Source: Candidatus Saccharimonadota bacterium
Lineage (GTDB): Bacteria > Patescibacteriota > Saccharimonadia > Saccharimonadales > UBA4665
DNA: 32,000 bases
Direction of reading: 5' to 3'
NCBI GenBank assembly: GCA_963718045.1
Contig: OY970350.1
Coordinates: 120,001 to 152,000, forward strand
A program made the translations under genes and the position numbers. Of this stretch, positions 6,701 to 25,415 are shown one piece after another (the stretch's first letter is position 1; each line of letters begins with the position of its first letter). A model generated the notes under the pieces. The model was not told the origin of the DNA and made no database searches. It saw only the letters and a list, made by a program, of their open reading frames with translations.

Positions 6701-9700
6701 ACAGCCGGTCAACTTGTATTTAACAATGGTATCAATAGTAACTCTATAACCTTTACTCAACCGGCTTCCCAGCCATCAAGCGCAATCAATATTGGTTTAC
6801 CATCTGTAGCTGGGACTGTTGCAGTTAAAGGGACTGGGCCCATATCAGTTGATAATACCGGTACAATAAGTTGTAGTGACTGTGCTGTTACTGGCAGCGG
6901 CGGCTCGGGAGCAAACGTAGTCACAACTTTAAATGGCTTAGATAATGCAGTCAGCATAACTGATTCACTTAATAATGCATTTAGTACCAGTGGCCAAAAC
7001 GTACAAATAGCCAATGCTTCAACCAGCAATTTAGGTCTCGTTAAGATTAACAATGACGGGAATCTAACCGTTTCTAGTGGCGTCGTAGATACCGCACAGA
7101 ATATCCAAACTAGCTCTAGCCCACAATTCGCAAGCGTATATCTGGGCAGTGCTGGTCCTAGCGGGAATGATGGCCAACTAGTCTTCTATGATGGTAGCAC
7201 TGGCTACAAACTAACTCTAAATCAGCTTACTTTAACCAATAATCAGACTATACACATACCAAACAACTCTGGTACTTTAATTGTTGCTGTCGGTTCATCT
7301 AATAACTTAACCCTAAATAATGGTGTAGTAGATACTGCTAACGCAGTAAACTTCCCAACATCAGTAACTACAGCAGAATTACTATCGGGTTCAAGTTCAC
7401 TACAGATTGGTTCGACTTCTTCAGTTCAGCCCTTTACCTTAAATGGTACAGCAGGCACAAGTGGTAGCTACTCATCATTGGATTTATATAGCGGCACTTA
7501 CAACACTAAGATAGATTTTGCAGTACCGGCAACAGGCAATAACGTCTACACATTCCCTGATGCAGGCGGCATTTCAGCAACTGTTTGTTTGCAAAATACA
7601 GGCAGTAGTTATAACAGCTGTACCTATGGATCAGGCTTAAATGGTATTGGTAGTTCAAATCAAGTAGCCTATTTCTCGGGTACCGGCACTCTATCAAGCG
7701 CAACGAATTTCTATGATAACGGCTCCACCGTAGGGCTTGGTGGTGTATCGTCAGGTTTTGGTACCCATACTCAGTTAACAGTTAATACAAATGCCACAGC
7801 AGTCAATAGTGCAGTTACTCAGCTTAACAGCGGCACCAGTAATCCGACTTACATACCTTTAGTTGTTGAAGGTGCTTCCAGTCAAACAGCTGATCTATTA
7901 GATATAGATAGTAATGCTGGAACCCCACTTGCCGGCTTTAATAGTACCGGAAACCTATATTTTAGCGGTTCTTCAAATAACACCATTACCGGTGCTAGCA
8001 ATGAAAACCTTACATTACAGAGTCAGGGCGCTGGTCAGTTACTTCTTAATTCTGCTGGCAGCAGCCTAGCGCTACAAGTAGGCGGTACGACAGAGGCTAC
8101 CGTAAGCAGTGCAGGCAACTTCAACCTACTTAATGGAAGTTATCAATTGGGGGGAAGTACTACATTATCGTCAGCAGCCTTAACCTTCACAGCTAGTACC
8201 GATAGCATTACCGGCCCATCAGGTAGCAGCATTACCTTAGATACTACTGGCTCAGGTATCCTATATCTAGGCAATACTAACGCTCCTAATATATATCTTG
8301 GTAATGGTAACTCAACCACTACAGTAGCCGGGCAGTTGTCTCAGAGCTACTCTAGTCCATCAGCTAGCACAGCAGATACTATTGGCTTTACAAATAGTAA
8401 CAGTGCAGCCGGGGTAGCTATTCAAGGTATTAGTCTAACACCTGCTAACACCACTCCATCCTCAGGTACTAACACTCTGAATGTTCTTAACTTTGTCGCT
8501 GGATCAGGAACGAATGCCACGGCCATCACCAATGGTGTTAACTTTGCTAGCAGTACTGGCTATTCTAACTTTATTAACGCACCAAACTTTGTAGTAGGTA
8601 GTAATGGGGTAATAACACTTGGGACTGTAGGTACAACAGAAGGAGAGCTTACCCTGAATAGTAGCCATTCTGGTGGGTCATTTAGTATTGAGCCAAGTGT
8701 TAATCAGGCTAAATCTACTATCTTATATTTACCAACAGACAGTTCCAGTACCGATACAGTTTGTCTAGTTTCTGATTGTACCGGTGCTGGTGCCGGCTCC
8801 GGTGATAGTAGCTATATATATAACACTTATTCCAGCCAACAATCACCTGGCAACATAGATATCGAGAGTGCTGTAGGGTATGTAGCCGCTAGTATTCAGG
8901 GGGCTTCTGGCCAAGACATAATGGATCTATATTCTAATGGTGGTACTCTTGTAGCCCACTTTGACAGTAGTGGAAATCTTAGCGCGGGCACTATCAATGG
9001 AGCAACTATTACTAGTACTGCCTTTGACGGTGCTACTCTAAGTGGCGGTTCTCTAAGTGGCAGCAGTCTATCAGCAACTCAGTTACTATTCAGTGGCGTT
9101 ACCGGTACAGTTACTACTAACTCTGGAGATAATTTAACAATTGATACTGGTGGTGGTACTTCCACACTTAACCTTGGCAATGCTTATGCTACAACCATAC
9201 AAATTGGTAACACCACCTTAAGCTCAGGTACCCAGACAATCAATATTGGCAATAACAACACATCAGGTGGTACTACCAATGTTAATATAGGCAATGGTTC
9301 AACGGCTCTTGGTACGGTAGCTATTCAGGGTGGGAACATAACACTTACAACCGTAGGGTCTGGTACTACCACTATAAGCAATATTTATAATAATACCGGT
9401 ACAGGAACTGCGCTTAAAGATAATGCTTCAGATATCCAAAGCGGCAGTTCTGGCAGCAGTACTGTTAATGCTGACACTATAAGTTTAACCGGCAATGCTA
9501 CTTCCGGTGAGACTATTAATCTAAACGGTATAAACTTTGCTAATGTTTCAGCAATTGCTAACAACACTTTCAACGGTCTTTACTTTGGTACTGGCTATAA
9601 TAATGCCATTCAAGGTGTCGGATCCCTTAACATAACCGGAGCAGGAGCCAGTACTTGGGATATAGGAGCTAACACTTTATCTCTCCAAACACTTTCTGGC

Positions 9701-12700
9701 GGCGCAATCACTACCGGTACGGGGTTATTTACCCTCGGAGGTAACGTTGCCTTATCTGCAGCCGCACCTTCAATATATAGCTCTACTACTAACTCTGGAT
9801 TAACGTTACAAGCAAACGGTACGGGAGCATTAACACTTAATTCATCTGGAACAACTGGCACAATTGGTGCTATCCAGATTGGTAACGCAAGTACTGCATC
9901 TGTAACCCAGAGCATAAATATAGGGAACAACGCAGGTGCATCATCTGTCTCGACCGTTACTGTTGGCTCAGTTCTAGGTGCCAGTGCTCTTACCCTACAA
10001 GCCGGAACAGGCAACCTAGCCCTAACTACCGGTAGTACCGGTGGTAGTAATATCACCCTAACAACTGATTATGCCTCTTCTAAAATAATTGCTAAATCTA
10101 CTATTAACTCTATTACTGCCTTCCAGATACAAGGGAGCAGTAGCACTGTCTTAACGGCTGACACAACGAATAGCCGGCTAGGAGTGGATAACTCTTACAC
10201 CCAGATAAGTACGCCTGCTTCAGCGCCGACAGTCAACGGTCCATATGCTGGAGGGAGCTTAACATATCCGAATACTTATTACTACGAAATTACAGCTGTT
10301 GATTCAATGGGCGGTGAAACTACTCCTAGCTCGCAAGGAGCTAGCGGTACTCAAACCAGCAGTGCTAACAGAACATATACCATCACATGGAGTGCAGTAA
10401 GTGGAGCTAGTGCTTATAAAATCTACCGCTGTTATGGGACAAGCGGTTGTACTGAAGTTTACATTGCTTCAACCTCAACAACCAGTTATACAGATAACGG
10501 TGTTACAGCTGGCACAGCTATACCGCCAACTACAAATACTGCCTATGTATCGACTAATAGCTCCAACAACAACGGCCAAGTAACCATTGGCGGCAATGGT
10601 ACTCCGACCGGACAGCTATATGTATCAGGTACCGTGCCATCAACGCTCACGGGGGCAACTGGTTATAATATTAGTAACCCAATCTCTACATATGTCTCTG
10701 GCCACTATGCCTACACAATCAGCAATGGCAATAGCGAATTAGTAATTGATGATATTTCCAACCCAGCCAGTCCAACTTATATTAGTGAAATAGGTACTAA
10801 CATTAGCGGCGGACGCTATGTCTATGTTTCTGGTCACTATGCTTATGTTGTCTGCGGTGGCACTACCGGTGAACTAATAATATTTGATATTTCCAATCCA
10901 TTCAGCCCGGCATATGTCAGTGAAACAACCACTAACCTGAATACTCCAAATGATATCTATGTCCAAGGTAATTATGCCTATGTAACAAGCGGCACTAACG
11001 GCACTAATAGCGATTTAGTAATCTTCAATATTTCCAATGCATTCAATCCAGCTTATGTTAGTGAAATAAGCACTAACCTGAATACGCCAAAAACTGTTTA
11101 CATTCAGGGTAATTATGCCTATATCACTAGTTATGGTAGTGGTTACCTAGTAATCGATAACATCTCCAACCCCGCCAACCCAACCTATGTTGGCGAAACA
11201 AACTCTAATTTAGACGGACCTTGGGGTTTATTTGTCTCTGGCAGTTATGCTTACATTGGTGAGGCCACACTTGGTTACCTAGTAATCGATAACATCTCCA
11301 ACCCCGCCAATCCAACCTATATTACCAAAACTAGTACTAATATAAATTACCCGGTATCCGTCTATGTCCAGGGCCGCTATGCCTACATTGCCAATAACGA
11401 AGGTAACTCTATGTCAATCGATGATATCAGCAACCCCTACAATCCAATCAGTGTAGGATTAACTGTCTCTAATTTAAGCTATCCAAGCGGTGTTTTCATC
11501 TCCGGACGCTATGCCTACGTAGATAGCAGCAATAATAACTCATTAGTAATTTATGATTTAGGCGGCACATATGATCAACAGCTGCAAGCTGGCGGGGCAG
11601 AATTAGGTACTTTGCAGGTAGATGGTAACTCGATTATGAGTGGCGATGCTTCTGTACAGGGTGGTCTGGCAGTCGGCAGTAATGCCCAAATACAGGGCGG
11701 CCTTAGCGTGGCCGGTTCTTCAACTCTTGGCAGTTTAAGTTTGAGCGGACTGGCCACACCGGCTGCTCCGACCGAAACAGTAACTTGTAGCGGTACTTGT
11801 GCTACCTCGTACAATTATGCCGTAGCGGCTATCAATGTCAGTGGTGTAACGGCTGCCTCTGCCAGTACTTCAACCGGAGCTACAGCTAATGCCTCACTAA
11901 ATACCACAACTGAATACAATAGAACTGGCTGGACTGCTGTAACCGGTGCTACTGGCTACAATATATATAGGACAGCCGGCGGGGCCGCTCAGGGCCTGAT
12001 AGGTACAGTCCCAGCTTCCAGCATTACCGCTCCGACTCCCACCTCAGGTAGTGAAACCGGTGCTACCTTGACCCTAAACTACTCCATACCACCACCATTC
12101 GTAATCGGCCAAGCCATTACTCTGGCTGGCTTTACTATGAATACCGGATCAGTTAACGGTACCTGGCCAATCCTATCGGTAACCTCTTCGGCTATTACTA
12201 TCAATATACTGAGTGGTGTTACTTCTACTATCAGTACCATGGGTACGGCTACCGGCATACTAGGTTTCTATGACACTGCCCAGACTGCCGGAACCTCAGC
12301 CCCGACCACGACTACTGCCGGAAGCTTAACAGTTAATGGCCCTGGCTTATTTGAGAATGCTTCTAACTCCACTACAGCCTTCCAGGTACAGAATGCCAGT
12401 GGCTATACATTATTGGGGGTAGATACAACAAGTGCAGACAATGACGTAATAATAGGCCAATCTAGTAATCTTACCGGTAACCTTATATTTGCCAACGCTA
12501 GTAATTCCTACACATTTAGTTTGACTGCCTCAACTGCGGCGAGCGGAAATATCTCTCTAATCTTGCCGTCTGTTGCACCGTCAGCTGGCCAATGTTTGAC
12601 AGCAACAAGCAGTACGCAATTAGCTTTTGCAGGCTGTGGTACATCTCACGCTAAACAGATAACGCTAGCAGCCGAATATGCTGGGGCTGTATTGGATAGC

Positions 12701-13159
12701 GCCGGTGATTCAAGTTGTTCTAGTGCTAATGTCGGGACAATGACTAGTGGCTATAATGATACAGATTCTACACCTCAATCATATTACCAGTGGTCAACTG
12801 TTCAAAGCTCGGCACGATGTTACGATGTTGTTGTTCAAATACCTATACCTAGCGACTGGTCTTCTTGGACTGGTACACCAACCATTTATGCATCTGCGGG
12901 TACGGGTGGCAGTATTGCCATAGCTGCCATAGCATCAAACGGTACCGAGGAATCAAACTACGGTACCATGTCGGCTGGTGTTGCAGCTTACCATAGCGAG
13001 ACAACAACTGGCTCTCTGGCGACTGTAACCCTACAAGGACTAACCAGCGCTAGCGATTCTGCAAATGGCGTACTCACTCTAAAAATTAGGATGTCCGCAA
13101 CCAGTAGCGGTAATACAGAAATAGGTACAATTATCATTCCGTATACATCGGCCTATTAA
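3785..13159 (+). CDS. Giant (3,124 aa) N-terminally anchored surface protein: long G/S/T/N-rich repetitive stalk, FN3-like modules, LVIVD-repeat beta-propeller, C-terminal domain of unknown function
   Basis: Single uninterrupted 9,375-nt ORF. It has one hydrophobic segment at aa ~49-72 (nt ~3929-4000). More than 2,000 aa are low-complexity strand-like repeats (e.g. GNTSLTGTLSVQGAVTLGS). FN3-like stretches occur at nt ~10230-10500 (..YYYEITAVD..AYKIYR) and ~11790-12000 (..YNYAVAAIN..GYNIYR). No SD is seen before the ATG. Confidence 0.9.
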   Translation: MKPEDNSLESGSEASQYNSSLEGGYQTSNAPNIPIKSPKVSISLFKFNKLAILITVSTLLFIGLLGGGAFIYDKTHSKASSLNSLEASGTYKNGSTLAVNQAQQADLLTLGQVNQLSVNGQLTVNKTLVLTPSTTPTSPIAGEIYFDSTTNKPYVYNGSQFVSLQIPAQYVANVGGITGNIVLGNGLTINGNTVNVSNSLLQSISSAASSTSVVSSLQGATGNVTLSSGSGISINGTTVSNTGVLNLTSLNGSIVITNSGSGSYNLALSGGGGVILGPNAAQIDNSNNPSIYINKTNNGNLLELQNNGVDQFVVNQSGNLGINGSFTQNGTGTFSTGSGAVSLNGNTTITGGNSLTVSSGATTLRGTLGVTGVSTLGSLGVSSFSDSGAASVTGNTSLTGTLSVQGAVTLGSNSPATQGSLIFDNGTNNNVISIVPSVPTGSGDVSVEFPALTGGSSDYFCVTGPDANCGTSATTVTTSSSGTSGDIAEFTGANQIANSPITDNGSNALTIQSGYTLNVGTLASVGDLNITPSGKVNINDTAQEVEIQGNASSYFSVSANGKTNKLAFTSPTSAQPTNYTITVPDESGTICLDNDAANCGFATSGSGVTDVNGYTGVICIQDANDNGSCSGNNVTINNATSSALGIASFSSTDFNVSSGAVTTVQNISTSGDVQFDGLSLGSGYNCTAPETGSLCLSTGGTVYTSNIVNPSSTAPLQVTSANSIFQFDQEGTTFEFPTGYGNTTHDICVSGVSCATGTGAAVILQPSSAQADDGSIAGIFINDINSNCTLGTNCKDLVDLQNGGSDVFTVDQYGNAQFDQTLYANTIQPISGAGGITVGTSGTSQTFTLQGNSGSEIEITNPNGGVSYIGIENPSGGTASSQSVYYALDDTQAPSSGTNGGNAAANPIFICTSANSYCTASSGITGTGTTGDLPLFNGAHSLANSILSQSSSNIAIAGSSSTSSLTIGNISSTAGQLVFNNGINSNSITFTQPASQPSSAINIGLPSVAGTVAVKGTGPISVDNTGTISCSDCAVTGSGGSGANVVTTLNGLDNAVSITDSLNNAFSTSGQNVQIANASTSNLGLVKINNDGNLTVSSGVVDTAQNIQTSSSPQFASVYLGSAGPSGNDGQLVFYDGSTGYKLTLNQLTLTNNQTIHIPNNSGTLIVAVGSSNNLTLNNGVVDTANAVNFPTSVTTAELLSGSSSLQIGSTSSVQPFTLNGTAGTSGSYSSLDLYSGTYNTKIDFAVPATGNNVYTFPDAGGISATVCLQNTGSSYNSCTYGSGLNGIGSSNQVAYFSGTGTLSSATNFYDNGSTVGLGGVSSGFGTHTQLTVNTNATAVNSAVTQLNSGTSNPTYIPLVVEGASSQTADLLDIDSNAGTPLAGFNSTGNLYFSGSSNNTITGASNENLTLQSQGAGQLLLNSAGSSLALQVGGTTEATVSSAGNFNLLNGSYQLGGSTTLSSAALTFTASTDSITGPSGSSITLDTTGSGILYLGNTNAPNIYLGNGNSTTTVAGQLSQSYSSPSASTADTIGFTNSNSAAGVAIQGISLTPANTTPSSGTNTLNVLNFVAGSGTNATAITNGVNFASSTGYSNFINAPNFVVGSNGVITLGTVGTTEGELTLNSSHSGGSFSIEPSVNQAKSTILYLPTDSSSTDTVCLVSDCTGAGAGSGDSSYIYNTYSSQQSPGNIDIESAVGYVAASIQGASGQDIMDLYSNGGTLVAHFDSSGNLSAGTINGATITSTAFDGATLSGGSLSGSSLSATQLLFSGVTGTVTTNSGDNLTIDTGGGTSTLNLGNAYATTIQIGNTTLSSGTQTINIGNNNTSGGTTNVNIGNGSTALGTVAIQGGNITLTTVGSGTTTISNIYNNTGTGTALKDNASDIQSGSSGSSTVNADTISLTGNATSGETINLNGINFANVSAIANNTFNGLYFGTGYNNAIQGVGSLNITGAGASTWDIGANTLSLQTLSGGAITTGTGLFTLGGNVALSAAAPSIYSSTTNSGLTLQANGTGALTLNSSGTTGTIGAIQIGNASTASVTQSINIGNNAGASSVSTVTVGSVLGASALTLQAGTGNLALTTGSTGGSNITLTTDYASSKIIAKSTINSITAFQIQGSSSTVLTADTTNSRLGVDNSYTQISTPASAPTVNGPYAGGSLTYPNTYYYEITAVDSMGGETTPSSQGASGTQTSSANRTYTITWSAVSGASAYKIYRCYGTSGCTEVYIASTSTTSYTDNGVTAGTAIPPTTNTAYVSTNSSNNNGQVTIGGNGTPTGQLYVSGTVPSTLTGATGYNISNPISTYVSGHYAYTISNGNSELVIDDISNPASPTYISEIGTNISGGRYVYVSGHYAYVVCGGTTGELIIFDISNPFSPAYVSETTTNLNTPNDIYVQGNYAYVTSGTNGTNSDLVIFNISNAFNPAYVSEISTNLNTPKTVYIQGNYAYITSYGSGYLVIDNISNPANPTYVGETNSNLDGPWGLFVSGSYAYIGEATLGYLVIDNISNPANPTYITKTSTNINYPVSVYVQGRYAYIANNEGNSMSIDDISNPYNPISVGLTVSNLSYPSGVFISGRYAYVDSSNNNSLVIYDLGGTYDQQLQAGGAELGTLQVDGNSIMSGDASVQGGLAVGSNAQIQGGLSVAGSSTLGSLSLSGLATPAAPTETVTCSGTCATSYNYAVAAINVSGVTAASASTSTGATANASLNTTTEYNRTGWTAVTGATGYNIYRTAGGAAQGLIGTVPASSITAPTPTSGSETGATLTLNYSIPPPFVIGQAITLAGFTMNTGSVNGTWPILSVTSSAITINILSGVTSTISTMGTATGILGFYDTAQTAGTSAPTTTTAGSLTVNGPGLFENASNSTTAFQVQNASGYTLLGVDTTSADNDVIIGQSSNLTGNLIFANASNSYTFSLTASTAASGNISLILPSVAPSAGQCLTATSSTQLAFAGCGTSHAKQITLAAEYAGAVLDSAGDSSCSSANVGTMTSGYNDTDSTPQSYYQWSTVQSSARCYDVVVQIPIPSDWSSWTGTPTIYASAGTGGSIAIAAIASNGTEESNYGTMSAGVAAYHSETTTGSLATVTLQGLTSASDSANGVLTLKIRMSATSSGNTEIGTIIIPYTSAY
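10660..11565 (+). repeat. Seven LVIVD-type repeats (predicted 7-bladed beta-propeller) inside the giant CDS
   Basis: The motif YAY(V/I)..(n)..L(V/I)I(D/F)(D/N)ISNP..P.Y(V/I)(S/G)E recurs seven times by my count. Two units share a near-identical ~47-nt DNA block (about 11146-11192 and 11274-11320). Confidence 0.75.
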
Positions 13160-13235: not shown

Positions 13236-16200
13236 ATGTCTAAAAAGTCGGCAACATTAAATCAAAAGGATAAAGCAAATGGAGATGTAACTACTAGCGA
13301 AATAGCAGCTAGATTAGTTCCATCTCGTAAATATGCCCAACTGACAACCAAAACGAAGTTTATTAATAAATTCGTTCAGACTAAGAGAAAAGTAACCAAA
13401 ATTGGTAATTCTAAATATCTATTAGCCACAAGAAGGGAACTTAGAAAAACAATTAAACAAATAACCTGTAGTCCGGTGACTATAAAATTTGTATGTATAT
13501 ATAAAGGACTAACTAAAACAGTTATCTATCGGACTGATTTTATTACAAAACCAATTAAGAAAAAGCTCCAGCCACCAATTAGTCTATTTATCCGTCGGTT
13601 TAACAAAGTAGTTGACCGGCTTGGCCGAAAACGCGTTAAGTGGGTAAGCTACGGATTATTTAGCACCCTAGTGGTTGTAGCTATAGCAGTTGGTTCCATA
13701 GCCTATATCCATAACTTGATTAATTCCAGCTATAATCTGCCGGTTAACGAACAAGCTTTGATCGGATCCCCTGACACTGCCTTAATGAAATCCCAATTAA
13801 CCTATAACTCTAAAACTAAAACATACTACCTAGACAAATCGGGCATAGACAAGAGTTCCAGTTCTACTCCCGGAGTCCCATCTGGAGATAACAGTATTAG
13901 CATCGGATCTAAATCTAATTCAGCCTTTAGTCTAGTAATACCTACTAACATCCATCAAGGCTTTACAGCTTATGACAATACCTACGGACTATCCTTCACC
14001 CTAACTCCTGAGTTTGACGCTATGAACGCCAAGATGGTAGACGGTCATCTAGTCTATCCAATGGGACTAAATTCAACTAAAGACGTCTACACCATTAAGG
14101 CTAATGGTCTCCAAGAAAACATAGTCTATAACTCTGCGCCAGCGGGAACAGTCAAACTAGCCTATAAACTGGAATTGCCCAGTACCCTCCAAGCTAAAAT
14201 GATGCCAGGCGGTAACATAGGTATTTATTCAGCCAGTCCATATTTATTCGGTAACATCAGCTACGGCTCAGCTAAAGACCAAGCCCTGGTAGCTAAAGCC
14301 AGACTTAACGCCGCTAAAACTAACCTGGTCTTTGTCTTACCAGCTCCGGAAATAACCGACAACGACGGAATGGCTCCAACTAACGTTCAACAACAAACTA
14401 AATTCAGTCTTAAAGGGGACATCTTAACCTTAACTGCCAGCGATTTAGGCGGTATCCATGGCCCGATCTCCATCGACCCGAGTGTTATTGATGCCAGTGC
14501 CAGTTCTTTTGGCCAGGGTAATAACGAAAGTGATATATCATTTGCCAATTCCAGCATATCTGAAGCCGGACTTAGCGGCGGCGGTCTAGCTGGCAACACC
14601 AATAGCTGTGGGGCATCTTGGTGTGCCTCGAACGGTACTGCCGGCACGGGCGCCAACCTGCCGGCTGCTACCTACGAAGCCACCGCTGTCGCCTACAATG
14701 GCTACGTCTATCAGATAGGGGGGTATGCTGGCAGTCCCACCGCCGTAGTGGACTACGCGGCACTCACCAGCAGTGGTGCGCTGGCCGCACCGGGTTCGGC
14801 TGCCTGTACCGCTGGCGGCGGTTCTATTGCCGGTGACTGGTGTGCCTCGAACGGTACTGCCGGCACGGGCGCCAACCTGCCGGCTGTCACCTCCCAACCC
14901 ACCGCTGTCGCCTACAACGGCTACGTCTATCAGATAGGGGGGTGTTCTACTGCTTGCCCCACCGCCGTAGTGGACTATGCGGCTATCACCAGCAGCGGGG
15001 CGCTGGCCGCACCGGCTTCGGCTGCCTGTACCGCTGGCGGCGGTTCTATTGCCGGTGACTGGTGTGCCTCGAACGGTACTGCCGGCACGGGCGCCAACCT
15101 GCCGGCTGCCACCGACTACGCCACCGCTGTCGCCTACAATGGCTACGTCTACCAGATAGGGGGGTATACTACCGCTGCCACCGCCGTAGTGGACTACGCG
15201 GCTATCACCAGCAGTGGTGCGCTGGCCGCACCGGGTTCGGCTGCCTGTACCGCTGGCGGCGGTTCTATTGCCGGTGACTGGTGTGCCTCGAACGGTACTG
15301 CCGGCACGGGCGCCAACCTGCCGGCTGCTACCTACGAAGCCACCGCTGTCGCCTACAATGGCTACGTCTATCAGATAGGGGGGTGTTCTACTGCTTGCCC
15401 CACCGCCGTAGTGGACTACGCGGCTATCACCAGCAGTGGTGCTCTGGCCGCTCCCGGCAGTTGTGCTGGTACTATCACCGGCTATTGGTGTGCCTCAACT
15501 TCTACGGCTAACGGCAGCCTGCCGGCTGCTACCTACGTCGCTACCGCTGTCGCCTACAATGGCTACGTCTATCAGATAGGGGGGATGGCTGGCGGTGCCA
15601 CCGCCGCAGTGTACTACGCCCCGATATACAATGGTGGCAATATTGGCCCCTGGTCATCCACCACTAGCCTACCGGCTGCTACCTACTACGCTACCGCTGT
15701 CGCCTACAATGGCTACGTCTATCAGATAGGGGGGTATACTACCGCTGCCACCGCCGTAGTGGACTACGCGGCTATCAGCAGTCCAGGAGATGTTGCTCCT
15801 TGGACAGCCTCAACTTCTACGGCTAACGGCAGCCTGCCGGCTGCTACCTACGAAGCCACCGCTGTCGCCTACAATGGCTACGTCTATCAGATAGGGGGGT
15901 ATACTACCGCTGCCACCGCCGTAGTGGACTACGCGGCTATCACCAGCAGTGGTGCGCTGGCCGCTCCCGGCAGTTGTGCTGGTACTATCACCGGCTATTG
16001 GTGTGCCTCAACTTCTACGTCTAACGGCAGCCTGCCGGCTGCTACCTACGGCGCCGCCGCTGTTGCCTACAACGGCTATGTCTACCAGATAGGGGGGTAT
16101 GCTGGCAGTGTCACCGCTGTAGTGGACTACGCGGCTATCACTAGCAGTGGGGCGCTGGCCGCTCCCGGCAGTTGTGCTGGTACTATCACCGGCTATTGGT

Positions 16201-18518
16201 GTGCCTCAACTTCTACGTCTAACGGCAGCCTGCCGGCTGCTACCTACGGCGCCGCCGCTGTTGCCTACAACGGCTATGTCTATCAGATAGGGGGGTATAC
16301 TACCGCTGCCACCGCCGTAGTGGACTACGCGGCTATCACCAGCAGTGGTGCGCTGGCCGCTCCCGGCAGTTGTGCTGGTACTATCACCGGCTATTGGTGT
16401 GCCTCAACTTCTACGTCTAACGGCAGCCTGCCGGCTGCTACCTACTACGCTACCGCTGTCGCCTACAATGGCTATGTCTACCAGATAGGGGGGTATGCTG
16501 GCAGTGTCACCGCTGTAGTGGACTACGCGGCTATCACTAGCAGCGGGGCGCTGGCCGCACCGGCTTCGGCTGCCTGTACCGCTGGCGGCGGTTCTATTGC
16601 CGGTGACTGGTGTGCCTCGAACGGTACTGCCGGCACGGGCGCCAGCCTGCCGGCTGCTACCTACTACGCCACCGCTGTCGCCTACAATGGCTACGTCTAT
16701 CAGATAGGGGGGTATGCTGGCGGTGCCACCGCTGTAGTGGACTACGCGGCTATCACCAGCAGTGGGGCGCTGGCTGCTCCCGGCAGTTGTGCTGGTACTA
16801 TCACCGGCTATTGGTGTGCCTCAACTTCTACGGCTAACGGCAGCCTGCCGGCTGCTACCTACGTCGCTACCGCTGTTGCCTACAACGGCTATGTCTATCA
16901 GATAGGGGGGTATGCTGGCAGTCCCACCGCCGTAGTGGACTACGCGGCTATCAACAACGGCGGGCCGGCGACGTTGAGTGCTTGGGCTGCCACCGGCAGT
17001 CTGCCGGCTGCTACCTACCAAGCCACCGCTGTCGCCTACAACGGCTATGTCTATCAGATAGGGGGGTATGCTGGCAGTGTCACCGCTGTAGTGGACTACG
17101 CGGCTATCACTAGCACTGGGGCGCTGGCCGCTCCCGGCAGTTGTGCTGGTACTATCACCGGCTATTGGTGTGCCTCAACTTCTACGTCTAACGGCAGCCT
17201 GCCGGCTGCTACCTACTACGCTACCGCTGTCGCCTACAATGGCTATGTCTATCAGATAGGGGGGTGTTCTACTGCTTGCCCCACCGCCGTAGTGGACTAT
17301 GCGGCTATCACCAGCAGCGGGGCGCTGGCCGCACCGGCTTCGGCTGCCTGTACCGCTGGCGGCGGTTCTATTGCCGGTGACTGGTGTGCCTCGAACGGTA
17401 CTGCCGGCACGGGCGCCAACCTGCCGGCTGTTACCTACGGCGCTACCGCTGTCGCCTACAATGGCTATGTCTATCAGATAGGGGGGTATGCTGGCATTGT
17501 CACCGCCGTAGTGGACTACGCGGCTATCACCAGCAGCGGGGCGCTGGCTGCTCCCGGCAGTTGTGCTGGTACTATCACCGGCTATTGGTGTGCCTCAACT
17601 TCTACGTCTAACGGCAGCCTACCGGCCGCTACCTACCTCGCTACCGCTGTCGCCTACAACGGCTACGTCTATCAGATAGGGGGGTGTTCTACTGCTTGCC
17701 CCACCGCCGTAGTGGACTATGCGGCTATCAATTCCAGCACCGGTGCTGTCGGTACCTGGACTGCCACTGGCAGCCTGCCGGCTGCTACCTACTACGCTAC
17801 CGCTGTCGCCTACAATGGCTATGTCTATCAGATAGGGGGGTGTTCTACTGCTTGCCCCACCGCCGCAGTGTACTACGCCCCGATATACAATGGTGGCAAT
17901 ATTGGCCCCTGGTCATCCACCACTAGCCTGCCGGCTGCTACCTACCAAGCCACCGCTGTCGCCTACAACGGCTATGTCTATCAGATAGGGGGGTATACTA
18001 CCGCTGCCACCGCCGTAGTGGACTACGCCGGATTGCAATCCATGCCCCGAATTGGCTTTTACTCACAGTTAATCGACATGTCCGGCTCATCAACCGAAGA
18101 TCCAGCCGCCGATTATATACTTGCCAATGGCTCCCAAACAGGGGATCCTGGCATAGGCGGTCTTAGCGGCCCAGGTACTGGGGGTATATCTATAAATTAC
18201 CAATTTGCCTCTAATGCTTGCCCGACCTTTAATAGCTCAACTGCGCTAACTACTAGCGCGCTAGTACTCGGTACTCCTTACCCCATGACTTCTTCTTCCA
18301 ATGGCTGCAGCAGTTCTTCAGATACTAATTTTGGCCGTTGGGTTTGGGTTACTGTCAAACTCGATGATTCCCAAACTGCGACATTCCCGGACTCTAGCGG
18401 TAACCATGCTACAATAACGGGATTCACGTTGTATTATCACCCGGCGACTAATGGAAGACTGCGTGGCGGAGCCACTTTTAGCAATGGTTCTTTACAAACG
18501 CTTGATGCACCACCTTGA
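13236..18518 (+). CDS. Giant (1,760 aa) membrane-anchored surface protein with 18 Kelch-like tandem repeats
   Basis: Uninterrupted ORF 76 nt downstream of the previous giant gene. It has a Lys/Arg-rich ~135-aa N-terminus, one TM segment (VSYGLFSTLVVVAIAVGSIAYI), a ~300-aa unique ectodomain, the repeat array, and a ~250-aa unique C-terminal domain. Confidence 0.9.
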   Translation: MSKKSATLNQKDKANGDVTTSEIAARLVPSRKYAQLTTKTKFINKFVQTKRKVTKIGNSKYLLATRRELRKTIKQITCSPVTIKFVCIYKGLTKTVIYRTDFITKPIKKKLQPPISLFIRRFNKVVDRLGRKRVKWVSYGLFSTLVVVAIAVGSIAYIHNLINSSYNLPVNEQALIGSPDTALMKSQLTYNSKTKTYYLDKSGIDKSSSSTPGVPSGDNSISIGSKSNSAFSLVIPTNIHQGFTAYDNTYGLSFTLTPEFDAMNAKMVDGHLVYPMGLNSTKDVYTIKANGLQENIVYNSAPAGTVKLAYKLELPSTLQAKMMPGGNIGIYSASPYLFGNISYGSAKDQALVAKARLNAAKTNLVFVLPAPEITDNDGMAPTNVQQQTKFSLKGDILTLTASDLGGIHGPISIDPSVIDASASSFGQGNNESDISFANSSISEAGLSGGGLAGNTNSCGASWCASNGTAGTGANLPAATYEATAVAYNGYVYQIGGYAGSPTAVVDYAALTSSGALAAPGSAACTAGGGSIAGDWCASNGTAGTGANLPAVTSQPTAVAYNGYVYQIGGCSTACPTAVVDYAAITSSGALAAPASAACTAGGGSIAGDWCASNGTAGTGANLPAATDYATAVAYNGYVYQIGGYTTAATAVVDYAAITSSGALAAPGSAACTAGGGSIAGDWCASNGTAGTGANLPAATYEATAVAYNGYVYQIGGCSTACPTAVVDYAAITSSGALAAPGSCAGTITGYWCASTSTANGSLPAATYVATAVAYNGYVYQIGGMAGGATAAVYYAPIYNGGNIGPWSSTTSLPAATYYATAVAYNGYVYQIGGYTTAATAVVDYAAISSPGDVAPWTASTSTANGSLPAATYEATAVAYNGYVYQIGGYTTAATAVVDYAAITSSGALAAPGSCAGTITGYWCASTSTSNGSLPAATYGAAAVAYNGYVYQIGGYAGSVTAVVDYAAITSSGALAAPGSCAGTITGYWCASTSTSNGSLPAATYGAAAVAYNGYVYQIGGYTTAATAVVDYAAITSSGALAAPGSCAGTITGYWCASTSTSNGSLPAATYYATAVAYNGYVYQIGGYAGSVTAVVDYAAITSSGALAAPASAACTAGGGSIAGDWCASNGTAGTGASLPAATYYATAVAYNGYVYQIGGYAGGATAVVDYAAITSSGALAAPGSCAGTITGYWCASTSTANGSLPAATYVATAVAYNGYVYQIGGYAGSPTAVVDYAAINNGGPATLSAWAATGSLPAATYQATAVAYNGYVYQIGGYAGSVTAVVDYAAITSTGALAAPGSCAGTITGYWCASTSTSNGSLPAATYYATAVAYNGYVYQIGGCSTACPTAVVDYAAITSSGALAAPASAACTAGGGSIAGDWCASNGTAGTGANLPAVTYGATAVAYNGYVYQIGGYAGIVTAVVDYAAITSSGALAAPGSCAGTITGYWCASTSTSNGSLPAATYLATAVAYNGYVYQIGGCSTACPTAVVDYAAINSSTGAVGTWTATGSLPAATYYATAVAYNGYVYQIGGCSTACPTAAVYYAPIYNGGNIGPWSSTTSLPAATYQATAVAYNGYVYQIGGYTTAATAVVDYAGLQSMPRIGFYSQLIDMSGSSTEDPAADYILANGSQTGDPGIGGLSGPGTGGISINYQFASNACPTFNSSTALTTSALVLGTPYPMTSSSNGCSSSSDTNFGRWVWVTVKLDDSQTATFPDSSGNHATITGFTLYYHPATNGRLRGGATFSNGSLQTLDAPP
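14601..18029 (+). repeat. In-frame tandem array of 18 Kelch-like units (about 150-222 nt each), markedly GC-rich
   Basis: The core AVAYNGYVYQIGG occurs 18 times in the translation. DNA periods of 219-222 nt show in the regularly spaced alternative-frame ORFs (14840, 15062, 15281). Long stretches are near-identical between units. Confidence 0.95.
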
Positions 18519-18790: not shown

Positions 18791-18827
18791 TCAGTTCATT
18801 TTGAATTGTTTTAAACAAATTCTTTTT

Positions 18828-18874
<47 letters not shown>

Positions 18875-19689
18875 TACATGCAAGTCGAGCGGTAAGGCTC
18901 CTTCGGGAGTACACGAGCGGCGGACGGCTGAGTAACGCGTAGGAACCTACCCTAAAGTGAGGGATAAGCACCAGAAATGGTGTCTAATACCGCATATGCT
19001 CTTTGGAGTAAAGCTACGGCGCTTTGGGAAGGGCCTGCGTATGATTAGCTTGTTGGTGAGGTAAAAGCTCACCAAGGCGACGATCATTAGCTGGTCTGAG
19101 AGGATGATCAGCCAGACTGGGACTGAGAACGGCCCAGACTCCTACGGGAGGCAGCAGTAGGGAATCTTCCACAATGGGCGAAAGCCTGATGGAGCAACGC
19201 CGCGTGCAGGATGAAGGCCTTCGGGTCGTAAACTGCTTTTATATGTGAAGATTATGACAGTAGCATATGAATAAGGATCGGCTAACTCCGTGCCAGCAGC
19301 CGCGGTCATACGGAGGATCCAAGCGTTATCCGGAATTACTGGGCGTAAAGAGTTGCGTAGGTGGCATAGAAAGCGGGCAGTGAAATTGTATGGCTCAACC
19401 ATATAGACATTGTCTGAACTACTAAGCTAGAGGACGAGAGAGGTACCTGGAAGTCCCAGTGTAGGAGTGAAATCCGTAGATATTGGGAGGAACACCGATG
19501 GCGTAGGCAGGGTACTGGCTTGTTTCTGACACTAAGGCACGAAAGCTAGAGCAGGGACCCGGATTAGATACCCGGTTACTTCTAGCTGTAAACTATGGAT
19601 GCTAGCCGTTATCGGTATCGACCCCGGTAGTAGCAAAGCTAACGCGTTAAGCATCCCGCCTGTGGAGTACGGTCGCAAGACTAAAACAT

Positions 19690-19725
<36 letters not shown>

Positions 19726-19830
19726 GTGTTGTTTAATTCGAAAGTAAGCGAAGAACCTTACCCAGGCTTGACTTCCTGCGAATTTCTCCGAAAGGAGAGA
19801 GTGCTTTTATTAGAGCGCAGTGACAGGTGG

Positions 19831-19877
<47 letters not shown>

Positions 19878-20161
19878 TCAACGAGCGCAACCCTTATGTT
19901 TAGTTGAATTTTTCTAAACAGACTGCCCTGGTAACAGGGAGGAAGGAGGGGATGATGTCAGGTCCGTATCTCCCTTACGTCTGGGGCCACAGACACGCTA
20001 CAATGGCCGATACAAAGGGCAGCCAAGTCGCGAGACGGAGCTAATCCCATCAAAATCGGTCTCAGTTCGGATAGTAGGCTGAAACTCGCCTGCTTGAAGC
20101 TGGAATCGCTAGTAACGGTAAGTCAGCATATTACCGTGAATACGTTCCCGGGTCTTGTACA

Positions 20162-20568
20162 AAATAAATGCGCCTGGCAGTGCATTGGACTAGATGGTGT
20201 AAATCCATCCTTAGTAGCTGCGAGCAGGACATCTTTGGCAACAAAATGTCTGAAGGGCTCTACATGCGAAGAATAGCCTTTACAGATTGATGACAACAAT
20301 CAAGTGGCTCTTTCGACTCTACTAACGTGTACGTAGGGGAAGAAAGCTAGATAAGCCGGTAAGGAATGTTTGAAATAGCCCAGTGTATAACCCAGGGAGA
20401 TCCTCATAACGAGTGTAATCAGTGTGGTTATGAGGAAGTCAGCTGAGTTCATAGTACCTTTATCTAAAGGGAAGGAACGAACTTTATGTCTAACAAAACA
20501 TAAAGACTCGCTGGATGCGTTAGACGCGCACGTCCAGTGGGGAGTACCCGAGATTACCGGAGTACAGT
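20162..20568 (+). other. 407-nt ORF-less insertion in 16S after E. coli position A1396; class unresolved
   Basis: The universal block CTTGTACA|CACCGCCCGTCA is interrupted. The junction is unambiguous. No group I core blocks are seen. Several perfect hairpins are present (20402-20410/20427-20435 and 20482-20489/20498-20505). Confidence 0.8.
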
Positions 20569-20655
20569 CACCGCCCGTCAAATCATGAAAGTCGCCAATA
20601 CCCGACGTGTAAGCTTTGTCTTGCCCTAAGGTAGGGGAGATGATTGGGATTAAGT

Positions 20656-21469
20656 TTAACGGCTTCTTATGCGAGTAATTGCATATGCCTATCCAACTAT
20701 ATCGGTGAACTCCTATTGCATCTCAAGCTATAATGCGTAGTAGATATGCAAGGACAATACCGAGGGAAGTTGGGCTAGAAACTAAAATGGCACACACAAG
20801 AGCAGCTAATTACCTGAAAACTATACAACTACTAGCTTTTGAGAAGGAAGTAGCTACAGCATGTTTAATAGGTGATGGCACGCTCGTAAAGTCTGGCAAA
20901 CAATATCGACTTAGGATTAGTCATACTATTCGTCACAGTGACTATGTACGCTGGAAGTATCATTTACTTCAGCGTATATGCGTTACCGCTCCACAGTATG
21001 TCTCAATGACTTCGTCGCTTCGATTTGGTACAGTAGGTCATCCAGATTTGTCAGAGATGCGACATCAGTGGTATGAAAACGGAGTAAAACATATTCCATC
21101 AAGTTTTCAATTAACGCCATTGATGATTGCAGTCTGGTTTATGGATGATGGCTGCAAACATAGCAAGACAGTAGATTTCTCAGTACATTGCTTTTCCGTA
21201 AAGAGCATTAATATCCTACAGAGAGCTTTGTCAGAATTCGATATTGCTACAACCATTAACTTCGACGGAAAAGGAAGTAGGTTATATGTCAGACAAAATA
21301 GCTATTTTAAGTTCAAAGAACTTGTTAAACCATACATACAACCATGTATGGCATACAAGTTGCCCTAACCCCGTAGAGGCCATACGTTGGCTCCATCGAA
21401 AGGTGGATGAAGATATGGTCCGACACCCTTAGTAATAAGGGGTCTTAGAGAATAAGACGCAACAGTAAG
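20656..21469 (+). mobile_element. Group I-like intron in 16S after U1495, carrying a homing-endonuclease ORF (family 2)
   Basis: It interrupts GATTAAGT|CGTAACAAGG. The 5' exon ends in U and the insert ends in G. It shares the blocks AATACCG.GGGAAGT (20753-20771) and AAGATATGGTCC (21410-21421) with 23S introns D and E. Confidence 0.8.
20733..21368 (+). CDS. LAGLIDADG homing endonuclease, two-motif type (intron-encoded)
   Basis: Motifs TACLIGDGTL and IAVWFMDDGCK. The ORF lies wholly inside the 16S intron. The true start may be the ATG at 20787, downstream of an intron core block. Confidence 0.85.
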   Translation: MRSRYARTIPREVGLETKMAHTRAANYLKTIQLLAFEKEVATACLIGDGTLVKSGKQYRLRISHTIRHSDYVRWKYHLLQRICVTAPQYVSMTSSLRFGTVGHPDLSEMRHQWYENGVKHIPSSFQLTPLMIAVWFMDDGCKHSKTVDFSVHCFSVKSINILQRALSEFDIATTINFDGKGSRLYVRQNSYFKFKELVKPYIQPCMAYKLP

Positions 21470-21686
21470 CGTAACAAGGTATCCGTACGGGAACGTGCGG
21501 ATGGATTACCTCCTTTCTAGGGAGTAAAACTAGCAATCAGTTGAGCAATCTCTGATCAGCTAGGTCGATCTCGATAAGTTGTTTATTTCAGTACTGACAA
21601 CTTATATAGCTAAGATTTATCTTAGACGAGACATCAGTTCTGAGCTAACGAACAACGTTGAAATGCACTACCAAGTTGTTAAATAG

Positions 21687-21720
21687 AAAAGAGCTCCGAT
21701 TTACCGAAGCTCTTTTTTTA
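21687..21720. terminator. Bidirectional intrinsic terminator between 16S (+) and tRNA-Ile (-)
   Basis: AAAAGAGCT..(12-nt loop)..AGCTCTTTTTTT: a stem flanked by an A-tract on one side and a T-tract on the other, between convergent transcription units. Confidence 0.6.
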
Positions 21721-21727
21721 TTCCATT

Positions 21728-21804
21728 TGGTGGGCGATGGAGGACTCGAACCACCGACCTCGTCATTATCAGTGACGCGCTCTAACCAGCTGAGCTAATC
21801 GCCC
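21728..21804 (-). tRNA. tRNA-Ile (anticodon GAU), CCA encoded
   Basis: The reverse complement folds as a cloverleaf: acceptor GGGCGAT/ATCGCCC, anticodon arm CGTCA-CTGATAA-TGACG, T-loop TTCGAGT (one U-U mismatch in the T stem). Confidence 0.93.
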
Positions 21805-21817
21805 TTATTTATTCCTA

Positions 21818-21894
21818 TGGTGGAGCATATCGGACTCGAACCGATGACCCCCTGCTTGCAAAGCAGGTGCTCTAGCCAACTGAGCTAATGCCCC
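21818..21894 (-). tRNA. tRNA-Ala (anticodon UGC), CCA encoded
   Basis: The reverse complement folds as a cloverleaf: acceptor GGGGCAT/ATGCTCC with the G3:U70 Ala identity pair, and anticodon arm CCTGC-TTTGCAA-GCAGG. Confidence 0.95.
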
Positions 21895-21930
21895 GAAGCC
21901 AAGGAAGAAACAAACCAAACTACCGGTGTA

Positions 21931-21959
21931 TTTTATCTTAACAGTGCTAGTCATACAAG
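21931..21959 (-). promoter_or_regulatory. Possible promoter for the antisense tRNA pair (TTGTAT-17 nt-TAAAAT on the minus strand)
   Basis: Read from the reverse complement, ~36 nt upstream of the tRNA-Ala 5' end. The -10 hexamer is the same as in the rRNA promoters. Confidence 0.4.
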
Positions 21960-22161
21960 TTTTACTATCTAATCAAAGGTATACTCTAAAAAGAAGGTCT
22001 ATAAGTAAATAATATGAATACAAAAGCAGGGTTCATAAATAGTTGTATATATACCAACATTAGTTACCATGTTACAGATAGAGACTTTATTAACTTATAA
22101 ATTGAATAGTAGAATTACTAAGTATTGTTGGTATCCGTACTGCAAGATAACCGATCTCTTA

Positions 22162-22170
22162 TGATATAAT
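22162..22170 (+). promoter_or_regulatory. Extended -10 element TGATATAAT immediately upstream of the 22181 ORF
   Basis: Exact TGnTATAAT ending 10 nt before the ATG, with no SD between them. This implies a leaderless or near-leaderless mRNA. Confidence 0.4.
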
Positions 22171-22180
22171 CGTTAGCGTT

Positions 22181-22999: not shown

Positions 23000-23187
23000 C
23001 AAACCCGAGAATAAGTGGCAGAAATGGACTATTCTTGTGCTTATTTTCTTTTATTTATTGAAGGTGGTTACCAAACAGCAAATATACCATATGCCCCGCT
23101 TAGTCCCTAAAAGTAACCAATCCTAATTAACAAAACCCAGCATATCTTCATCTACCAAACTGTAGCAAGATCAACATCAGATTTAGC

Positions 23188-23216
23188 TTGACCATATCTG
23201 TTAAAATTGCTAAAAT
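23188..23216 (+). promoter_or_regulatory. 23S-5S promoter (TTGACC-17 nt-TAAAAT)
   Basis: Exact duplicate of the 16S promoter core. Confidence 0.7.
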
Positions 23217-23371: not shown

Positions 23372-23379
23372 GGTAAGAT

Positions 23380-25382: not shown

Positions 25383-25415
<33 letters not shown>

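Follow-up and report, generated by a model that had tools for sequence, protein, structure and literature searches.

The 32,000-nucleotide stretch of Saccharibacterial DNA analysed here (the window) contains an open reading frame (ORF) in which a long array of tandem repeats lies between two unique regions. A preliminary description, based on third codon positions counted by hand, proposed that the array favours GC-ending codons and that its flanks do not, and it offered two explanations: either the repeat module came from a high-GC donor, for instance an actinobacterial host, or GC-biased gene conversion operates inside the array. The counts themselves are sound; 10 of the first 41 codons end in G or C, as stated, and 48 of 73 do so from nucleotide 14679, given earlier as roughly 47. 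The question that this locus raises is what sets the codon usage of the array apart from that of the rest of its own reading frame.

The GC3 shift is synonymous and confined to the array

Computed GC content at third codon positions (GC3) rises from 0.369 in the N-terminal part of the ORF to 0.626 in the array and drops to 0.401 in the C-terminal part. The array lies above the other ORFs in the window (0.33–0.44) and the neighbouring giant ORF (0.341), and the flanks are close to these values. From the amino-acid composition of the array and background synonymous usage, a GC3 of 0.365 would be expected. The shift therefore sits at synonymous sites, as had been proposed, and amino-acid composition alone is rejected as its cause.

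A maximum-likelihood fit with two change points places the boundaries at nucleotides 14574 (support 14541–14643) and 18086 (support 18047–18113), with a gain of 54 lnL; GC3 is ~0.63 between them and ~0.37 over the remainder of the ORF. These boundaries agree within tens of bases with the two ends of the repeated DNA, at ~14601/14619 and 18032. GC content at codon positions 1, 2 and 3 of the array is 0.55, 0.67 and 0.62, respectively (~61% overall). Relative to background, C at third positions (C3) is increased by 0.175 and G3 by 0.093, A3 and T3 are both lower, and GC1 and GC2 are raised; these are the changes that a general GC drive would give.

The 1143 codons of the array represent ~18 copies of one 74-codon unit with a consensus GC3 of 0.65, so that the effective independent sample is only ~74 codons. 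Even for a single unit, the binomial probability of its GC3 is 7e-7, and the unit residual of +0.28 exceeds those of all 2639 null windows of 74 codons (SD 0.074, maximum 0.273) taken from non-family ORFs at Saccharibacteria loci. An internal control is provided by the adjacent gene for a 3124-aa LVIVD protein, similar in amino-acid composition but without DNA-level repeats, in which the GC3 residual ranges from −0.11 to +0.10. An assembly chimera was rejected, since the array joins both flanks in frame, is recovered in L052, an independent assembly of the same species (flank 99.3% identical, array GC 0.60–0.66), and has a counterpart in the gene of a sister species that is identical in three samples.

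The array lies within a predicted Kelch-type surface protein

The features of the ORF are as follows.

13236..18518, + strand: whole ORF, 1760 aa; Kelch-array surface protein with a predicted membrane anchor, from a family specific to Saccharibacteria
13236..13640, + strand: basic N-terminal tail, aa 1–135, 36 K+R and 6 D+E; presumed cytoplasmic; GC3 low, 0.20–0.33
13644..13715, + strand: predicted membrane anchor, the sole hydrophobic segment, ~aa 137–160; peak Kyte–Doolittle 19-mer GLFSTLVVVAIAVGSIAYI
13716..14600, + strand: conserved N-domain, ~295 aa; present in 118/120 homologues; GC3 at background
14574..18086, + strand: GC3-rich block from the maximum-likelihood fit; GC3 0.627 inside, 0.365 outside
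14601..14657, + strand: half-linker ahead of the array, NSCGASWCASNGTAGTGAN; homologue of the 3′ half of the long Cys-loop linker; start of the repeated DNA
14658..18032, + strand: array of Kelch-type blades, 18 units of 50–74 aa each
14658, 14877, 15099, 15318, 15519, 15669, 15834, 16032, 16230, + strand: unit starts, blades 1–9
16428, 16647, 16845, 17001, 17199, 17421, 17619, 17775, 17928, + strand: unit starts, blades 10–18
18033..18515, + strand: conserved C-domain, ~160 aa, ending in RLRGGATFSNGSLQSLDAPP; phmmer match in 35/120 homologues

The Kelch profile PF24681 matches the ORF product in five stretches with 99.8 bits (curated cut-off 50), and PF01344 matches it with 24.6 bits (curated cut-off 20.1). 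Taken together with the 18 units and their conserved core, these matches above cut-off identify the array as a series of Kelch-repeat β-propeller blades. As in other proteins with these profiles, a hydrophobic strand is followed by an aromatic and double-glycine core, here YNGYVYQIGG; unlike them, the present protein has 18 blades per chain with inserted Cys loops, is predicted to be membrane-anchored and holds its blades between two family-specific domains. Homologues carry the JGI name 'N-acetylneuraminic acid mutarotase', which is unjustified because the NanM profile PF24996 stays below its cut-off in the ORF product (27.8 versus 45 bits). Neither this score nor the 18 blades and extra domains fit the epimerase/mutarotase NanM, a single six-bladed propeller enzyme.

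The N-domain was modelled by AF2 as a β-sandwich (pLDDT 78) that weakly resembles the N-terminal sandwiches of GH92 and GH63, and the C-domain as a β-sandwich of low confidence (pLDDT 67). Foldseek searches of the PDB with the two models gave no match at E≤0.001, and the likeness found is that of a generic β-sandwich, to GH92/GH63 N-domains and jelly rolls. The N-domain alignment contains 20 invariant columns and the C-domain alignment 19. Within the C-domain, GC3 is back at background ~20–80 nucleotides past the domain start.

The architecture common to the family is a TM anchor, the N-domain, a Kelch array and the C-domain. Judged from its sequence, the ORF product is a native Saccharibacteria surface protein comprising a basic tail, a membrane anchor, a β-sandwich N-domain, 18 Kelch blades and a C-domain. 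The literature searched contained no account of such a Kelch family in Saccharibacteria. It represents a large, conserved and uncharacterised surface protein and a candidate for host contact. The neighbour of the ORF, the LVIVD gene, encodes another giant propeller protein.

The blades evolve in concert

The blade core has the consensus LPAATYxATAVAYNGYVYQIGG..TAVVDYAAI. Linkers are of three kinds, a long Cys-loop in five units, a short Cys-loop in seven and a form without Cys in five, the final unit is truncated, and there are 18 G6 tracts; the Cys loops suggest disulfide-type structures. The units are mosaics of shared cassettes, and CSTACPT, YTTAAT and others are found with every linker type. 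Among the units, 531 of 1176 informative site pairs (45%) do not pass the four-gamete test, and recombination is likewise indicated by a PHI-type permutation (p<0.0005). We conclude that segments are exchanged between blades, through unequal crossing-over or gene conversion, and that the array undergoes concerted evolution. L001 and L002 are near-identical strains whose differences all fall inside the array, 5 kb of flanking sequence being 100% identical. Codons ending in T are as homogeneous across the units as those ending in C, and unit homogeneity is therefore caused by concerted evolution and not by codon selection.

GC3 excess follows array homogeneity across the family

In 47 non-redundant family genes, the GC3 excess of the array over its own flanks is correlated with its 12-mer repeat fraction (rep; Spearman 0.62, p 4e-6), and the window gene tops both homogeneity (0.88) and GC3 excess (+0.27). 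The GC3 residual of 50-codon windows increases monotonically over bins, from −0.03 at rep<0.02 to +0.16 at rep>0.6. When the clade of the window gene is left out the trend runs from −0.019 to +0.10, and it is also found within genes (r 0.23, p 1.5e-9). The excess is positive in 12 of the 14 arrays with rep>0.2; L020:7674 and L009:8086 are homogeneous but not enriched.

The family-wide signal resides in C. Against homogeneity, the correlation is +0.51 for the C3 residual and −0.22 for the G3 residual, G3 is positive in just 3 of the 14 homogeneous arrays, and in the GC-rich genome L030 the array gains 0.23 in C3 and loses 0.125 in G3. Neither GC1 and GC2 nor the fraction of Gly, Ala, Arg and Pro (GARP) rises outside the clade of the window gene. 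Other repeat-bearing ORFs of the same genomes, one with near-perfect repeats included, are shifted by merely +0.02 to +0.06. In the sister gene, blades without DNA-level repetition still have a GC3 of 0.50–0.56.

The GC3 of the core consensus is 0.70–0.78 in the window gene, in the sister (flank dS 0.44), in L005 (dS ~1.1) and in L006 (dS saturated). The bias is thus maintained over long times, out to saturated dS; neutral decay from a single founder unit or an old transfer should have erased it. That the GC3 bias is endogenous and tied to repeat homogenisation is well supported.

Biased conversion as the preferred explanation

In the mechanism that we propose, exchange among blades would go together with a force that drives synonymous sites toward codons ending in G or C, for the most part in C. 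This force would keep the array much richer in GC than the AT-rich equilibrium composition of the flanks with which it shares a reading frame. The likeliest molecular cause would be GC-biased resolution of heteroduplex mismatches between diverged repeat copies, so that biased conversion opposes AT-biased mutation pressure. The suggestion of GC-biased conversion made in the preliminary description fares well as regards the boundaries, the recombination of units, the dose–response across the family and the lack of C-preference in highly expressed genes. It fares less well in that the family-wide excess is specific to C3 and not strand-symmetric, and that other repeat genes are barely shifted; a strand-symmetric repair bias predicts a gain in G3 of ~0.06, but G3 is not raised family-wide. 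A mismatch glycosylase that acts one-sidedly could account for such C-specificity. We consider the chances evenly balanced that the bias is an endogenous by-product of concerted evolution, with GC-biased conversion as its most likely cause. That the array bias represents GC-biased gene conversion (gBGC) in the strict sense we propose only tentatively.

Substitution patterns provide few events. With S for G/C and W for A/T, the 31 synonymous events among the 18 units include three S>W and two W>S singletons, a count for which polarisation by the majority state is circular. Comparison of the core in the window gene with the sister consensus, polarised by L005 or by type-2 units as the outgroup, places two to three S>W changes and one W>S change on the window lineage, just three to four events in all and without an excess of W>S. 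Causality could also run in reverse, with GC-rich units homogenising more efficiently.

In bacteria, gBGC has been proposed from the higher GC3 of recombining genes (Lassalle et al. 2015, PMC4450053). That study deals with recombination of alleles between genomes and draws its comparisons among whole genes, with no mention of paralogues, repeats or concerted evolution. Common to both cases are a GC3 that is raised where recombination occurs, an AT-biased mutational background and a pattern that is not codon selection in highly expressed genes. Here, however, tandem repeats of one ORF exchange with each other, the contrast is internal to a single frame and the family signal is C-specific rather than symmetric. 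The existence and strength of bacterial gBGC are still debated, and prior evidence consists of correlations among genes that are unlike one another in many ways. An array and its flanks within one frame share transcript, expression level and replication context, and the contrast between them is graded by a conversion proxy over dozens of relatives. If population data confirm a fixation bias, this family would constitute an unusually clean test system.

In eukaryotic multigene families that evolve in concert, such as histone, Hsp70 and rDNA arrays, copies homogenised by conversion are GC3-rich relative to their single-copy surroundings. Those families differ from the present one in that meiotic or ectopic conversion acts on whole genes, and not on protein-domain repeats within a bacterial gene. 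The PE_PGRS (polymorphic GC-rich repetitive sequence) genes of Mycobacterium encode surface proteins in which a unique N-terminal domain precedes a repeat region that is GC-rich, rich in Gly/Ala and prone to recombination. The GC-richness of PGRS is usually ascribed to Gly-Gly-Ala codons, in a genome that is already high in GC. A unique N-terminal domain and GC-rich recombining repeats in a surface-protein gene are shared with the window gene, but PE_PGRS proteins are without a Kelch fold and the PE domain is absent here, so that the likeness would be one of analogy, not homology. The literature searched contained no GC-rich intragenic repeats in bacteria attributed to conversion.

It is doubtful, though conceivable, that protein-coding tandem repeats in bacteria of the candidate phyla radiation (CPR) undergo inter-repeat conversion with an intrinsic fixation bias toward G/C, chiefly toward C, which lifts GC3 by 0.25 over the flanks and is held across saturated divergence. 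If this were true, the Kelch family would be a natural assay for bacterial biased conversion with a built-in control, the array being compared with its flanks over a range of homogeneity, and a strand-asymmetric repair bias would be indicated, which is absent from the current gBGC model.

Selection on synonymous sites and founder effects

Selection on synonymous sites is a serious rival to biased conversion, even if we regard it as unlikely. Either C-ending codons, read by G34 tRNAs with full Watson–Crick pairing, or a C-rich and G-poor mRNA/DNA strand would be favoured in the blades, possible gains being the accuracy or pace of translation over many identical blades, or the stability of the mRNA or the repeats; homogeneity and codon bias would both stem from strong constraint. 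The restriction of the family-wide excess to the third position and to C resembles codon preference more than a GC drive, as does the gain of C3 at the cost of G3 in L030, and the effect is largely missing from other repeat genes. Some synonymous states are also deeply conserved, for example TAT at the third Tyr of YNGYVY in 8/8 consensus groups. Nevertheless, no bias is seen in the N-terminal and C-terminal portions of this mRNA, and the preference in the window array is uneven, Ala being still 49% GCT and Cys 86% TGT. Codons ending in G have risen there as well (CTG 0.94 of Leu, CCG 0.58 of Pro, GGG 0.28 of Gly), together with GC1 and GC2, and the equal homogeneity of T- and C-ending codons points to concerted evolution. 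In a small sample of S1, ribosomal-protein, RNA polymerase, Tig and ClpP genes, C/(C+T) is 0.34–0.43, equal to that of other genes. Ordinary translational selection is rejected as a sufficient cause, since these highly expressed genes have no preference for C-ending codons.

In a founder effect, a unit that was GC3-rich by chance would have been amplified and its composition inherited, with no continuing force. The array is effectively one 74-codon unit, homogeneous arrays contain few independent codons and so have a high sampling variance, and some arrays deviate downward (L020:7674, L043, L009:11547). The residual of the unit is nevertheless beyond every null window, the direction of deviation is asymmetric, with 12 of the 14 homogeneous arrays going upward, and GC3-rich cores survive in lineages with synonymously saturated flanks. 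The founder effect is therefore already disfavoured, and we hold it to be improbable.

The family is native to Saccharibacteria

The least probable of the explanations is that the repeat module was acquired from a high-GC donor, whether an actinobacterial host or a higher-GC Saccharibacterium by recombination in conserved flanks. The composition of the array is indeed atypical, with GC up at all three codon positions, and some Saccharibacteria have a background GC3 of 0.62–0.69. One L090 unit is 80% identical in DNA to the window consensus unit, though the L090 N-domain is only 42% identical; by our estimate, such a match is about what a conserved core and C-biased codons would be expected to give. 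Unit similarity to the window consensus falls with the background GC3 of the donor (rho −0.33), GC-rich genomes being dissimilar (0.55–0.56). Import from a higher-GC Saccharibacterium was rejected, as unit similarity does not lead to GC-rich genomes. The compositional boundaries coincide with repeat edges inside the ORF, and mobility genes are absent. For repeat genes of CPR genomes, a sharp change of GC within the gene should not be taken as horizontal transfer or assembly chimera.

The actinobacterial donor put forward in the preliminary description is largely refuted by the family itself, on grounds that the description had named in advance. The closest homologues of the window gene are all from low-GC or mixed-GC Saccharibacteria and conserve its architecture, the N-domain directly upstream accompanies the array in all but two of the 120 matches, and both the Cys-loop linkers and the Cys..WC motif ahead of the array are native features of the family. 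The sister species, also low in GC, has the same unit types and the same GC3 bias at a flank dS of 0.44. Full-length and array-only searches of 5.8 billion proteins returned members of the Kelch-array family alone, and those with a taxon name are all from Saccharibacteria, save one from another CPR lineage. As found here, the distribution of the predicted family is restricted to Saccharibacteria. A search of 185,579 species genomes with an alignment of eight sequences located 44 N-domain loci, which belong to Saccharibacteria/Saccharimonadales or unnamed bins, bar one. The single exception is a 'Burkholderiales' contig that is apparently misbinned.

Synonymous composition of the repeat array

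The ORF at 13236..18518 (+) encodes a product of 1760 aa. In 500-nt windows, GC content rises from ~0.35–0.46 to 0.59–0.65 between ~14500 and ~18000 and then falls to ~0.41. The N-terminal 455 codons have a GC3 of 0.369, the 1143 codons of the array one of 0.626 and the final 162 codons, at the C-terminus, one of 0.401, compared with 0.341 in the neighbouring 3124-aa ORF and 0.33–0.44 in the remaining ORFs of the window. Full computation thus bears out the preliminary description, in which only the array departed from the composition of the window; its hand counts of G- or C-ending codons, 10 in the first 41 and roughly 47 in a ~73-codon unit from ~14679, were recounted as 10/41 and 48/73. The amino acid composition of the array combined with background synonymous usage predicts a GC3 of only 0.365, which places the shift at synonymous sites and excludes Ala/Gly richness as its cause; the preliminary description had likewise said that Ala/Gly richness was not the whole explanation. 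A-ending codons are nearly gone (GCA 0.03, GGA 0.01, ACA 0.01, CCA 0.02), and both C-ending and G-ending codons are increased. A maximum-likelihood two-change-point fit places the GC3-rich block at nt 14574–18086 (support intervals 14541–14643 and 18047–18113), and these limits coincide with the edges of the repeated DNA.

Because the array consists of 18 copies of one unit, the independent sample is ~74 codons, not 1143. The consensus 74-codon unit has a GC3 of 0.65 (binomial P = 7e-7), and not one of 2639 null windows of 74 codons, drawn from ORFs outside the family at Saccharibacteria loci, reaches its amino-acid-corrected residual of +0.28. We regard the observation as solid and beyond chance. 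Assembly chimerism is ruled out by an independent assembly of the same species (L052; upstream region syntenic and 99.3% identical), whose array GC is 0.60–0.66, and by the gene of the sister species (L002 version), which is 100% identical across three samples.

Architecture of the protein

Features of the product, from the N-terminus
Basic tail: 135 aa, with 36 K+R versus 6 D+E
Hydrophobic segment, one only: ~aa 137–160
N-domain: ~295 aa, between the hydrophobic segment and the blades
Kelch-type blades: 18 (Pfam PF24681, 99.8 bits against a cut-off of 50)
C-domain: ~160 aa, after the blades

From this architecture we infer a membrane-anchored cell-surface protein. The N-domain is modelled by AF2 as a β-sandwich (pLDDT 78) that resembles the N-terminal sandwiches of GH92/GH63 enzymes only weakly; the C-domain was also modelled as a sandwich, with low confidence, and a structure search gave no significant match for it. 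The gene adds a member to a known fold class; the Saccharibacteria family to which it belongs is uncharacterised. Its units share the blade core LPAATYxATAVAYNGYVYQIGG..TAVVDYAAI and vary in the short cassette that follows IGG (for example YAGSPT, CSTACPT or YTTAAT) and in the linker, which is a long Cys-loop in five, a short Cys-loop in seven and without Cys in five, the last unit being truncated. TAT rather than TAC encodes the third Tyr of YNGYVY in 8/8 consensus groups (units of the window gene and of loci L002, L004, L005 and L006), a synonymous state conserved over deep divergence despite the surrounding C-ending bias.

Distribution of the family and origin of the array

Among 5.8 billion proteins searched, 121 matched; those named to a taxon are nearly all Saccharibacteria/Saccharimonadales, the one exception being another candidate phyla radiation (CPR) lineage. 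The N-domain is common to 118 of 120 homologues and the C-domain to 35. An N-domain scan of 185,579 species, each represented by a single genome, identified 44 loci, all from Saccharibacteria bar one apparently misbinned contig, and a metagenome scan identified 40 more. That contig, L031 (JBBRSA010000063.1), is labelled a Burkholderiales MAG yet carries the family gene; its gene length, identity and E-value match those of the Saccharimonadales contig L030, and it is probably misbinned.

Searched on its own, the array matched nothing but fragments of family members; no actinobacterial protein was retrieved. In the sister species (flank dS 0.44), whose genome is equally low in GC, the array is built of the same types of unit, Cys-loop linkers among them, and a Cys..WC motif precedes the first blade throughout the family. 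The units closest to those of the window come from low- or mid-GC genomes; those of GC-rich Saccharibacteria are dissimilar. Closest homologues found only in low-GC CPR relatives with the same bias were what the preliminary description had said would count against its proposal of acquisition from a high-GC donor, such as an actinobacterial host, and on these sequence comparisons we judge that proposal wrong.

Recombination and GC3 enrichment

The array units recombine with one another: of 1176 informative site pairs, 531 violate the four-gamete test, the incompatibilities are clustered by distance (permutation p<0.0005), and all combinations of cassette and linker type occur. Among 47 non-redundant family genes, homogeneity, taken as the fraction of recurring 12-mers, correlates with the amino-acid-corrected GC3 excess of the array relative to the flanks of the same gene (Spearman 0.62, p = 4e-6). 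The residual in windows of 50 codons increases monotonically, from −0.03 in unique sequence to +0.16 where the repeat fraction exceeds 0.6; the trend persists without the window's clade and within genes (r = 0.23, p = 1.5e-9). The excess is positive in 12 of the 14 arrays with repeat fractions above 0.2 and averages −0.02 in the 23 below 0.05, and the window array has both the highest homogeneity (0.88) and the highest excess (+0.27) of the family genes compared. The adjacent giant gene serves as an internal control: it is similar in composition and repetitive at the protein level but not at the DNA level, and its GC3 residual lies between −0.11 and +0.10.

A GC3-rich core (0.70–0.78) is present in lineages whose flanks are synonymously saturated, which neither a lone founder unit nor an ancient transfer, decaying neutrally since, can explain. 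Something keeps the bias in place. No C-ending preference was found in the genes for S1, ribosomal proteins, RNA polymerase, Tig and ClpP, so that translational selection of the ordinary kind appears weak in these genomes. Overall, recombination, the dose trend across the family, the control gene, the saturated lineages and the codons of highly expressed genes support a bias that is endogenous and linked to the concerted evolution of the blades.

GC-biased conversion, proposed in bacteria by Lassalle et al. (PMC4450053), is the simplest candidate cause and the best reading available, but it is unproven. The earlier suggestion that it operates in the array gains from the recombination of the units and the scaling of the excess with homogeneity; its plain form leaves unexplained that the family-wide excess is C-specific. 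The C3 residual correlates with homogeneity (+0.51, p = 3e-4); the G3 residual shows no such correlation (−0.22), and just 3 of 14 homogeneous arrays have a positive one. The array of L030, from a GC-rich genome, has C3 +0.23 and G3 −0.125; under a strand-symmetric repair bias, G3 would be expected to rise by ~0.06. Outside the window's clade neither GC1/GC2 nor the GARP (Gly, Ala, Arg, Pro) fraction rises. In the window array, effectively one 74-codon sample, C3 is +0.175, G3 is +0.093 and GC1/GC2 are raised. Two homogeneous arrays lack GC3 enrichment, and sister-gene blades unrepeated at the DNA level have raised GC3 nonetheless. Other repeat-bearing ORFs at the family loci (19 windows, ~5 ORFs, one with near-perfect repeats) show residuals of only +0.02 to +0.06; their repeats may be too young, or the effect may be specific to this Saccharibacteria family. 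The L043 ORF at 1195–7545, which lies upstream of the family gene and is not itself a member, has near-perfect DNA repeats (repeat fraction 0.93) and a residual of only +0.025, contrary to the idea that repeats of any sort turn GC-rich.

Selection on synonymous sites within the blades is therefore a real rival, favoured by the C-specific excess and the small shift in other repeat ORFs; the highly expressed genes speak against selection of the ordinary translational kind. Causality could also be reversed, GC-richness driving homogenisation. Direct polarity tests of array changes were underpowered. GC enrichment of concertedly evolving repeats is an already-known phenomenon, met here in a bacterial intragenic array, a setting for which our literature search found no description; its significance would grow substantially if population data revealed fixation bias.

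Array length variation and G6 runs

The sister-species loci L001 (2901–7652) and L002 (4367–9733) show no differences over ~5 kb of flank, and their products are of 1583 and 1788 aa, with ~70 mismatches within the array. The L052 array (~8488–12871), which contains frameshifts, is ~900 nt shorter than that of the window although its flank is 99.3% identical. Such differences between near-identical strains reflect either very fast array turnover or repeat collapse in assembly.

A G6 run (GGG GGG, conserved Gly-Gly) is present in 18/18 units of the window array, GGG being the rarest Gly codon in the background (0.08–0.09). Only two G or C runs of at least six occur in the remaining 28.5 kb of the window. 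The G6 runs could be slippage or phase-variation sites, or merely sequencing-error hot spots.

G6 runs in the window array
Units 1–9: 14718, 14937, 15159, 15378, 15579, 15729, 15894, 16092, 16290
Units 10–18: 16488, 16707, 16905, 17061, 17259, 17481, 17679, 17835, 17988

Gene neighbourhood

The gene lies between the 3124-aa LVIVD-propeller gene (3785–13159, directly upstream; synteny kept in L002 and L052) and the rRNA operon, with gyrB and gyrA upstream. In the sister species, a second tandem paralogue of 2060–2085 aa separates the Kelch gene from the rRNA operon (L001 7845–14102; L002 10001–16183), its array less homogeneous and its GC3 excess ~+0.09; it is absent from the window and L052. 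The rRNA region of the window, 18824–28695, is unusual in organisation.

Features of the rRNA region
18824–20213 (+): 16S gene
20400–20477: group II intron D1–D4 match, after 16S
20733–21368: LAGLIDADG ORF, after the group II intron match
21728–21894: tRNA-Ile(GAT) and tRNA-Ala(TGC), on the strand opposite to 16S
22181–22999: conserved 272-aa ORF without Pfam match
23467–28433: 23S gene, with three ORF-containing group I introns (25415–25699, 26549–26802, 27423–27715)
28581–28695: 5S gene
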